A DNA stretch of 14,062 nt from assembly GCF_003334385.1 (NCBI RefSeq), contig NZ_QOWN01000066.1; one strand, given 5' to 3'. The notes beneath the pieces are model-generated. The model had not been told where the DNA came from. It saw nothing but the letters and a program-made list of their open reading frames with translations, and ran no database searches. This stretch comes from Escherichia coli. Its GTDB lineage: Bacteria; Pseudomonadota; Gammaproteobacteria; Enterobacterales; Enterobacteriaceae. Both the position numbers and the translations under genes were made by a program. Below are positions 12,504-13,586 of the stretch, one piece after another (the first letter of the stretch is position 1; every line of letters starts with the position of its first letter).

Positions 12504-12695
12504 TCACCTGTTTCTGCTGCCCTGAAGGATGTAGTGACCGCCCAGGAAAACCGCCTGCTGATTCGCCACAAAATCGCAGATTTCATCAACAATCTGCGCG
12601 GTGGTGAGCGGTTTCTGCCCCATTTCACGACGCCGCGCATTAATCACGGCCCTGTAATTACGCAGAATTTCGCGAGTTTCTGTGCTGATATTCAT
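12504..12695 (-). CDS. Hypothetical small protein, 63 aa, translationally coupled to the upstream gene
   Basis: Its ATG (12695..12693) overlaps the TGA of the 140-aa gene (12694..12692) in an ATGA arrangement. Confidence 0.45.
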   Translation of the reverse strand: MNISTETREILRNYRAVINARRREMGQKPLTTAQIVDEICDFVANQQAVFLGGHYILQGSRNR

Positions 12696-13114
12696 GACAT
12701 CGTCTCCCCGTCCAGCGCCTGTAACACAACGTCCATTGCTTCGCGTTCCTCCCTGACGAATGCGTCACTGTCGCCCCCGTTCTCACTCCCGACGGCATAC
12801 AGGCGCTTCATTTCACTGCCTGCCAGCGCCATCACTTTTTCCAGCATCACCGCCGGGACTGTCACATGACGGCTGGCGCGCTTTTCTTCCATCAGTTCAC
12901 GAACAACGTCGTGAACAACGCTGACATCCGCACCATGCTCAAAGGCATCGTCCAGTCGCTGCATGACAGTTTCCAGCTCATCGTCTGACAGGTTCCAGTC
13001 CCGGGCTATGTGACGCACATCCCCACGGGTCAGCACCACGGCAAAAACGCATTCACTGTCCGGCACGTCTGTATCCAGTACATCGCGGATGATTTCTTTA
13101 ACAGTACAGTACAT
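12692..13114 (-). CDS. Hypothetical highly acidic protein, 140 aa
   Basis: ATG at 13114 with an AAGGAGA Shine-Dalgarno 7 nt upstream. Very rich in Asp and Glu. Directly downstream of the klcA-like gene. Confidence 0.65.
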   Translation of the reverse strand: MYCTVKEIIRDVLDTDVPDSECVFAVVLTRGDVRHIARDWNLSDDELETVMQRLDDAFEHGADVSVVHDVVRELMEEKRASRHVTVPAVMLEKVMALAGSEMKRLYAVGSENGGDSDAFVREEREAMDVVLQALDGETMS

Positions 13115-13160
13115 GTTCTCGTCTCCTTTACAGGGGCGGCATTGCCGCCCCGTCCGTTAA

Positions 13161-13586
13161 TCAGTCAAGTGCCGCGTAAATCGCGTTGCATTCGGGGTGA
13201 AATTCGATGTGGCTCCACAACTGCGCATCACGCATCCTGTACAGGTGTGTCAACCCTGCATCCCCGCTGTCGTGGTACAGCCACAACTGGCGGTTAATCA
13301 CAAGGGAGGTAAGGATGATGCCTGCGGCATCAGCACTCACGGTACGGTCAAACCAGTTTGCACCGTTCACCATGTGGAAACGGTCGCCATCCGGCATCAT
13401 GTAACCGCCACCGTCCGGCAGGCGGATGAAGTGCCAGAATCCGCCTTCATATTCCGGCATCATTTTTTTCGCCAGCGCGTATACAGACGCTTCGGCATAC
13501 AGAAAATCCAGGCCAAACAGGTAAGGCAGAAAAGACAGACGGTCGCACTCTTCAACGTTCAGAGTGACAGGTTTCGCATACTGCAT
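13161..13586 (-). CDS. klcA: KlcA/ArdB-family antirestriction protein, 141 aa
   Basis: Start at ATG 13586..13584 with a GGAGGA Shine-Dalgarno 6 nt upstream (the track's longer ORF reads into the GC-rich hairpin). The block GGFWHFIRLPDGGGYMMPDG...SADAAGIILTSLVINRQ...RMRDAQLWSHIE matches the KlcA/ArdB pattern as I recall it. Confidence 0.7.
   Translation of the reverse strand: MQYAKPVTLNVEECDRLSFLPYLFGLDFLYAEASVYALAKKMMPEYEGGFWHFIRLPDGGGYMMPDGDRFHMVNGANWFDRTVSADAAGIILTSLVINRQLWLYHDSGDAGLTHLYRMRDAQLWSHIEFHPECNAIYAALD

Follow-up and report, generated by a model that had tools for sequence, protein, structure and literature searches.

The three genes at 12504-13586 of the 14,062-nucleotide stretch of Escherichia coli DNA analysed in this work (the window) constitute an operon that is already known and annotated, formed by klcA, a DUF1380 gene and a small ORF, and no new entity was found in it. 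The comparative results bear mainly on the second product, the acidic 140-aa DUF1380 protein, for which we favour, with a probability of roughly 0.45, the role of an independent, swappable and non-enzymatic early effector for plasmid establishment or defence evasion. They narrowed the hypotheses on this protein in several ways: it does not appear as an ArdA/Ocr-like DNA mimic nor as an obligate subunit of KlcA, it behaves like a cassette, and the hairpin that precedes its gene is conserved.

Genetic Setting of the Operon

The window belongs to a conjugative plasmid of the IncI1/B/O type. It contained trbC (731-3034, plus strand), the relaxase gene nikB (4328-7039, minus strand) and nikA. Next comes a leading region whose genes were almost all directed toward oriT, the latter being placed at approximately 7400-7600. 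Anti-restriction genes cluster in the leading regions of conjugative plasmids, which in F-like and IncI plasmids are the first DNA to reach a new cell. The operon adjoins a deletion, ssb, psiB, psiA, and ardA being gone, and it is the plus strand of the window that is transferred and that also serves as template for klcA and for the DUF1380 and 63-aa genes. These three genes form a co-directional and tightly packed operon in the leading region, with a true KlcA/ArdB homologue at its head, in agreement with the sequence-only reading of this stretch as an antirestriction operon. Comparison of plasmid F (L012) with the window or with pSCU-172-1, an IncI1 plasmid (L001), gave dN/dS values from 0.07 to 0.22 (0.07-0.10 for klcA and around 0.2 for the DUF1380 gene), thus indicating purifying selection on all three ORFs. 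No Rfam family was matched anywhere in the window.

The first gene of the operon, klcA/ardB (13161-13586, minus strand), starts with the ATG at 13586, preceded by a GGAGG Shine-Dalgarno sequence, and stops at 13161, coding for 141 aa. The KlcA/ArdB-like nature noticed earlier was corroborated by the matches of the protein to the Pfam family Antirestrict (PF03230, E 3.1e-26, residues 45-141) and to the anti-restriction PHROG 10132 (5.9e-20), and the gene is labelled 'antirestriction protein' in thousands of plasmids; on these matches, the assignment of the product to the KlcA/ArdB family as a true homologue is firm. A GTG-started ORF of 178 aa (13161-13697) was considered as an alternative start and was rejected, since the ATG at 13586 has the Shine-Dalgarno sequence and is the start annotated in the databases.

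Distribution and Naming

The operon DNA was 96-99% identical to that of IncI1 plasmids, and a 1.15-kb stretch of it was found at ≥94% identity in at least 5000 plasmids of PLSDB, most of them conjugative and carried mostly by Escherichia, Klebsiella, Salmonella, and Shigella. Plasmid matches spanned the Enterobacterales (among them Escherichia, Klebsiella, Salmonella, Pantoea, Pectobacterium, Erwinia, and Yersinia) and corresponded to IncF, IncI, IncL/M, and other backbones. Plasmid F displayed the same three genes in the same order, with the same intercistronic hairpin and the same 4-nt overlap at the DUF1380/63-aa junction (an overlap also present in pESBL), and its DUF1380 protein was 96% identical to that of the window. 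The klcA operons of F and of the IncI1 plasmids pESBL/R64 coincided with that of the window in the lengths of the proteins (141, 140, and 63 aa) and in the upstream promoter hairpin, and no meaningful difference with respect to them was found in the window operon itself. On the basis of gene lengths and arrangement, the counterparts in pESBL are KlcA/ArdB, Hp12 (423 nt) and Hp13 (192 nt) (PMC4288162).

In a published ranking of leading-region families (Samuel 2024, supplementary table) the 63-aa family, YffA or 'AreA', occupied the 6th position with 4048 members, YcgB, the DUF1380 family linked to the methylase, the 7th with 3957 members, and the YcjA/YcgC/YfeC/YubJ family, which holds the 140-aa protein of the window, the 14th with 3145 members, all three being labelled as uncharacterised (PMC11541004). 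DUF1380 and YffA are therefore among the fifteen commonest leading-region families, plasmid F included, and the question of their function had already been raised by others. The YffA family was found here in more than 5000 plasmids. In a scan of 1.84 billion representative proteins, the DUF1380 branch of the window accounted for only 130 clusters, most of them fragments, and a tblastn search of 50,697 phage records retrieved no relatives of either the DUF1380 or the 63-aa protein.

Several names are in use for these genes. The 140-aa protein is yfeC in one F-like record, YcjA in some records and 'DUF1380 family protein' at NCBI, and the 63-aa protein is yffA in one F-like record. Gene names were considered unreliable, because ycjA denotes a ParB-like gene in pS88.

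Probable Single-Strand Promoter and Intercistronic Hairpins

A large imperfect inverted repeat was located upstream of klcA (13622-13859, plus strand), its arms (13622-13653 and 13828-13859) being 91% complementary. When the segment 13587-13900 was folded as single-stranded DNA its energy was -80.3 kcal/mol (z = -4.7), and none of 100 shuffled sequences was as stable. The hairpin region upstream of klcA was 89% identical to that of F, and positions 13593-13945 shared 96% identity with the sequence that precedes ardA in pSCU-172-1. In pESBL, the promoter hairpins of klcA and ardA are alike and define a 'class 2' single-strand promoter (PMC12672017). The window likewise has a long hairpin of the transferred strand upstream of klcA that resembles that of ardA and, judging from its sequence, the 13622-13859 repeat is the counterpart of the class 2 single-strand DNA promoter of klcA/ardA in pESBL. 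The klcA operon of pESBL and F was reported to be strongly induced in recipients within 15 minutes, transcription starts having been mapped by 5' RACE in pESBL only (PMC12672017). No double-strand promoter was obtained in a sigma-70 scan of 12300-14062; a single -35/-10 candidate inside the promoter hairpin (TTGCAA-20 nt-TACGAT, 13809-13840) had a 20-nt spacer and was rejected as unconvincing.

During conjugation the plus strand would enter the recipient 5' to 3' from oriT, and the long hairpin would form a promoter on this single strand, so that the operon would be transcribed before the complementary strand is made and would become silent once the plasmid is double-stranded. Published work has demonstrated early expression and shut-off for pESBL and F, and for the window we infer them from its 96-99% identity to IncI1 and F plasmids with the same operon.

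A GC stem-loop of eight perfect pairs (GGGGCGGC-att-GCCGCCCC; 13133-13151, minus strand) was found between the klcA stop and the Shine-Dalgarno sequence of the DUF1380 gene, where the sequence-only reading had placed a GC hairpin. Around 0.0008 such hairpins would be expected by chance in this 46-nt gap, and the leading region contained six of them vs. 0.115 expected from dinucleotide shuffles. An equivalent hairpin was present at the klcA-DUF1380 junction in 13 out of 13 loci, in most of which the flanking proteins were 26-48% identical. Most of the stems were variants of GGGCGGC/GCCGCCC, with GGGCAG/CUGCCC in two loci; the outer pair alternated between G-C, C-G, and A-U, and compensatory change was limited to one or two pairs. 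In the hairpin alignment 87.5% of the cells were paired, in contrast with 43-62% in slid controls. Similar stem-loops appeared in other gaps of early operons (yubE-DUF1380, DUF1380-DUF1380, and ardA-yffA), and a U-tract was absent after the hairpin of the window and after most of the similar ones.

The simplest reading of the klcA-DUF1380 hairpin is differential mRNA stability, processing or partial termination; by one of these means the stem-loop, placed before the DUF1380 ribosome-binding site, would probably set how much KlcA is made relative to the proteins encoded downstream. It may also be a protein-binding site or play a role on the single-stranded template, and the RNA, protein-site and single-strand DNA roles are inseparable since the stem is conserved mainly in sequence.

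Three other GC hairpins (12476-12495, 12437-12454, and 12405-12423, minus strand) occurred directly downstream of the 63-aa stop, two of them recurring in plasmid F behind its 63-aa gene (L012 3700-3758); the cluster, spanning 12405-12495, is probably the 3'-terminal structure of the operon. A consensus terminator scan gave, as a pattern match only, a terminator-like stem followed by CTTTTATT (12316-12336, minus strand), which would be the likeliest end of the transcript. This stem is directly followed by the next single-strand promoter repeat, of class 1.

Family and Structure of the DUF1380 Protein

The 140-aa protein is encoded at 12692-13114 (minus strand), with AAGGAG 8 nt upstream of its start. 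Its Pfam match to DUF1380 was weak and partial (PF07128, E 3.9e-4, residues 1-99), and the hhalign comparison of the 140-aa set with the DUF1380 paralogues of methylase operons gave a probability of 99.9% (E 1.9e-33, 135 columns). The earlier description of the protein as uncharacterised is still valid, but it belongs to a known and named family within a well-known operon.

The AlphaFold2 model, built from a 20-sequence alignment, displayed six helices arranged in two halves (pLDDT 78, pTM 0.49). All its Foldseek neighbours in AFDB50 were DUF1380 members, and a search of BFVD gave no match at E < 1e-3. The PDB, searched by single sequence and by profile, returned no match for DUF1380 or for the 63-aa protein, and neither NCBIfam nor PADLOC gave a meaningful match for KlcA, DUF1380 or the 63-aa protein. 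Matches of the DUF1380 and 63-aa proteins in PHROGs were either weak or to families of unknown function, including one weak profile match (E 3.2e-5). No catalytic family was matched by DUF1380 in family, profile and fold searches.

The 63-aa Protein

The plus strand reads TCAT at 12692-12695, that is, ATGA on the coding strand, so that the start of the 63-aa gene (12504-12695, minus strand) overlaps the stop of the DUF1380 gene; the ATGA arrangement described previously was thus read directly. The overlap of stop and start and the packing of both genes on the same strand are those of translationally coupled genes, and the 63-aa protein would be translated by coupling from the same mRNA. The gene is real: its dN/dS was around 0.1, and homologues of its product were found behind DUF1380 in Pectobacterium, with 41% identity, and in two further loci, with 46-47%, as well as behind ArdA in a Klebsiella plasmid (59%). 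The protein is basic, with a pI of 9.8. Searches with the sequence and with the family alignment assigned it to no Pfam, NCBIfam or PADLOC family, a sub-threshold match to DUF7420 (E 0.03) being the only one in Pfam, and no helix-turn-helix motif was found in the Pfam searches.

The 63-aa gene would be a mobile 'tail' gene of anti-restriction operons. From its basic charge and its 3' position in operons with hairpin promoters, one may speculate on a regulatory or nucleic-acid-binding role for the protein, maybe as a small nucleic-acid-binding regulator. The IncP kilC operon (klcA, klcB, korC) and the anti-CRISPR acr-aca operons resemble the operon of the window in having the anti-defence gene first and a small gene last, and in both of them the last gene is a repressor. 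The DUF1380 and 63-aa proteins are likened here to KlcB, KorC, and Aca by operon layout alone, not by homology.

Proposed Role of the DUF1380 Protein

KlcA/ArdB relieves type I restriction indirectly (PMC2836571). In the mechanism that we propose, DUF1380 would be a helical effector acting alone, which binds some host protein that endangers the entering DNA or takes part in its processing, and which behaves as an exchangeable cassette behind either KlcA or a single-strand methylase. No functional study of DUF1380 or YffA was found in the literature, so the effector role of DUF1380 is inferred from its context. In transposon sequencing of pESBL under permissive laboratory mating, KlcA, Hp12, and Hp13 were non-essential for maintenance and transfer (PMC4288162), as expected of conditional effectors.

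The absence of BLAST-level relatives in phages is as compatible with a task specific to conjugation, for instance dealing with the single strand that enters, as it is with anti-defence. In a different explanation, DUF1380, the 63-aa protein or both serve the establishment of the plasmid and not defence evasion; they might act on the way in which the host deals with the incoming single strand (SSB, RecA, helicases, priming), or might regulate the single-strand promoters, for instance by shutting off early genes. Both families occurred solely on conjugative plasmids of Enterobacterales, in operons and neighbourhoods that also contain the ssDNA methylase, ssb, and psiB, and the position of the basic 63-aa protein at the 3' end of klcA and ardA operons with related promoter hairpins recalls acr-aca. 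However, no DNA-binding domain was detectable in either protein by family and profile searches, the acidity of DUF1380 argues against nucleic-acid binding, and the genes were dispensable for transfer in the laboratory matings mentioned above; taken together, we regard a role restricted to establishment as unlikely. The dispensability seen in transposon sequencing would be just as expected of genes that do nothing important.

A broader form of the effector proposal is held only tentatively. DUF1380, possibly together with YffA, could represent a new class of plasmid-specific early anti-defence effectors, diversifying as exchangeable cassettes behind KlcA and the single-strand methylase, with every variant directed against a host factor of its own, and with the intercistronic stem-loops being a dedicated device that tunes expression from the single-stranded template. 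If DUF1380 and YffA inhibit host defences, they would help to explain how resistance plasmids of Enterobacterales become established in new hosts and would be targets for blocking plasmid spread.

Relationship between DUF1380 and KlcA

Immediately upstream of this DUF1380 branch, at a distance of 41-66 nt, klcA was found in 13 loci, which are all the divergent loci with upstream sequence available; in the divergent loci KlcA was 35-48% and DUF1380 26-37% identical to the proteins of the window. Since adjacency was held in spite of this divergence, the comparison supports a functional link between the acidic DUF1380 protein and klcA. The strict adjacency and similar spacer, maintained down to 35% KlcA identity, are also what would be expected if DUF1380 were a dedicated partner of KlcA, acting as its cofactor, chaperone or antidote, and the action of KlcA/ArdB on restriction, known to be indirect (PMC2836571), also speaks for such a partner. 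Against it, ArdB/KlcA cloned alone were enough to alleviate type I restriction in vivo, an effect absent in vitro (PMC2836571).

An unrelated ORF of 94 aa came right after klcA in pOXA-48, DUF1380 paralogues were found without KlcA behind the orphan ssDNA methylase and YubE, and tandem arrays of two DUF1380 genes occurred. The KlcA/ArdB genes of IncP and IncN plasmids are not known to be followed by DUF1380 either. In two loci (L009 and L011) KlcA was 75-77% identical to that of the window but DUF1380 only 26%, which indicated cassette exchange and that KlcA and DUF1380 do not co-evolve. An AlphaFold2 model of KlcA and DUF1380 fused by a linker gave a pTM of 0.47, with the DUF1380 half less confident than alone, and thus no sign of a confident complex, in a test of low power (11 paired sequences, a linker and no PAE). 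A dedicated partnership is accordingly quite improbable and an obligate one unlikely; from the suggestion that the acidic protein may be a partner of KlcA, the linkage of the two genes stood, in 13 loci, and the obligate dependence did not.

The paralogues of methylase operons (named YcgB, YfcB or YubF depending on the source), located downstream of the ssDNA methyltransferase M.EcoGIX and of YubE, share with the DUF1380 protein of the window full-length homology, approximate size and position in early operons. They differ from it in their identity (around 23%), in a less acidic net charge (from -4 to -13) and in being linked to the methylase instead of KlcA.

Comparison with DNA Mimics

The sequence-only reading had also proposed that the acidic protein could be a DNA mimic reminiscent of ArdA or Ocr. 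Such a mimic would occupy the groove in which type I restriction enzymes bind DNA. ArdA and Ocr are, like DUF1380, small acidic proteins made early from entering DNA. The 140-aa protein contained 31 Asp+Glu (22%, the same fraction as in ArdA) and 15 Lys+Arg, and the computed pI and net charge were 4.45 and -16; the ORF, its coordinates and its high Asp and Glu content were therefore right, and 'very acidic' was somewhat overstated. The ArdA of a related IncI1-group plasmid has a net charge of -25 over 166 aa, and Ocr has one of -28 over 117 aa. Per residue, the net charge of DUF1380 was around two-thirds of that of ArdA and half of that of Ocr, because the 15 basic residues are retained, and residues 64-111 were neutral.

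Although the klcA-operon branch of DUF1380 was consistently acidic (mostly net -10 to -17), just eight alignment columns were conserved as acidic, and the methylase-operon paralogues were much less charged. Neither sequence nor fold similarity to ArdA or Ocr was found, and the fold searches with the AlphaFold2 model, viral models included, gave no neighbour beyond DUF1380, whether ArdA, Ocr or other solved mimics. The lack of a fold match, the moderate charge, the few conserved acids and the mild paralogues left DNA mimicry of the known type unsupported by the model and alignments, so that, in spite of its small, helical and acidic nature and its early expression beside an anti-restriction gene, DUF1380 is very unlikely to be a mimic of the ArdA/Ocr kind; it could conceivably mimic DNA in a novel manner. 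The promoter hairpin of ardA is of the same class as that of klcA in the window.

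Deletion beside the klcA operon

Several genes of a typical IncI1 plasmid are absent from the plasmid carrying the window: ssb, the DUF905 and parB-like genes, psiB, psiA, ygaA, and ardA. The junction was examined by comparing window positions 11800-12300 with 7156-7656 and 13503-14000 of the IncI1 plasmid pSCU-172-1, and the deletion breakpoint lay within a repeat of the ssi/Frpo-like, class 1 single-strand promoter type. This location suggests that the deletion originated by recombination between two promoter copies. Matching plasmids numbered at least 5000, of which just 44 had the junction (11800-12300) unbroken. 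The window contains two copies of a GC-rich repeat, one upstream of the DUF4942 gene (8933-9261) and the other upstream of a 144-aa gene at 11316-11750 (11800-12128); they share segments 85-95% identical, and both match ssi/Frpo-like class 1 promoter regions from IncI1 plasmids.

Composition of the klcA operon

Values of dS between the window and plasmid F were 0.38 for klcA and 0.11 for the DUF1380 gene, a threefold gap between adjacent genes. At two other loci with klcA directly upstream of a DUF1380 gene (L009 and L011), KlcA was 75-77% identical to that of the window, whereas the DUF1380 protein was only 26% identical. The klcA operon is a recombination mosaic. In pOXA-48 (pOXA-48-type plasmid L007, 3479-4247) an unrelated 94-aa protein takes the place of DUF1380 after klcA, the spacer between both genes (43 nt) being similar in length and bearing a different GC hairpin; a DUF1380 gene is located about 1 kb upstream, within another operon.

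GC hairpins and the Rpn tail copy

Perfect GC hairpins of at least 8 bp were strongly enriched in the leading region (7600-14062; 6 observed vs. 0.115 expected), and the transfer genes, which span 7.6 kb, had only one. Several intercistronic gaps of the early operons in pSCU-172-1 (2400-19200) also contained such a hairpin. The hairpin GGCAGGGC-gca-GCCCTGCC (7539-7557), which separates nikA from the first gene of the leading region and is also kept in pSCU-172-1, is probably the oriT inverted repeat.

An Rpn-family nuclease gene (9979-10893, minus strand) is directly followed downstream by a 69-aa ORF (9747-9956, minus strand) that aligned with the C-terminal tail of the Rpn protein (54% identity, E 4e-16) and is a free-standing copy of it. 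Small intragenic Rpn antitoxin proteins have been described in the literature, and the tail copy is reminiscent of them.
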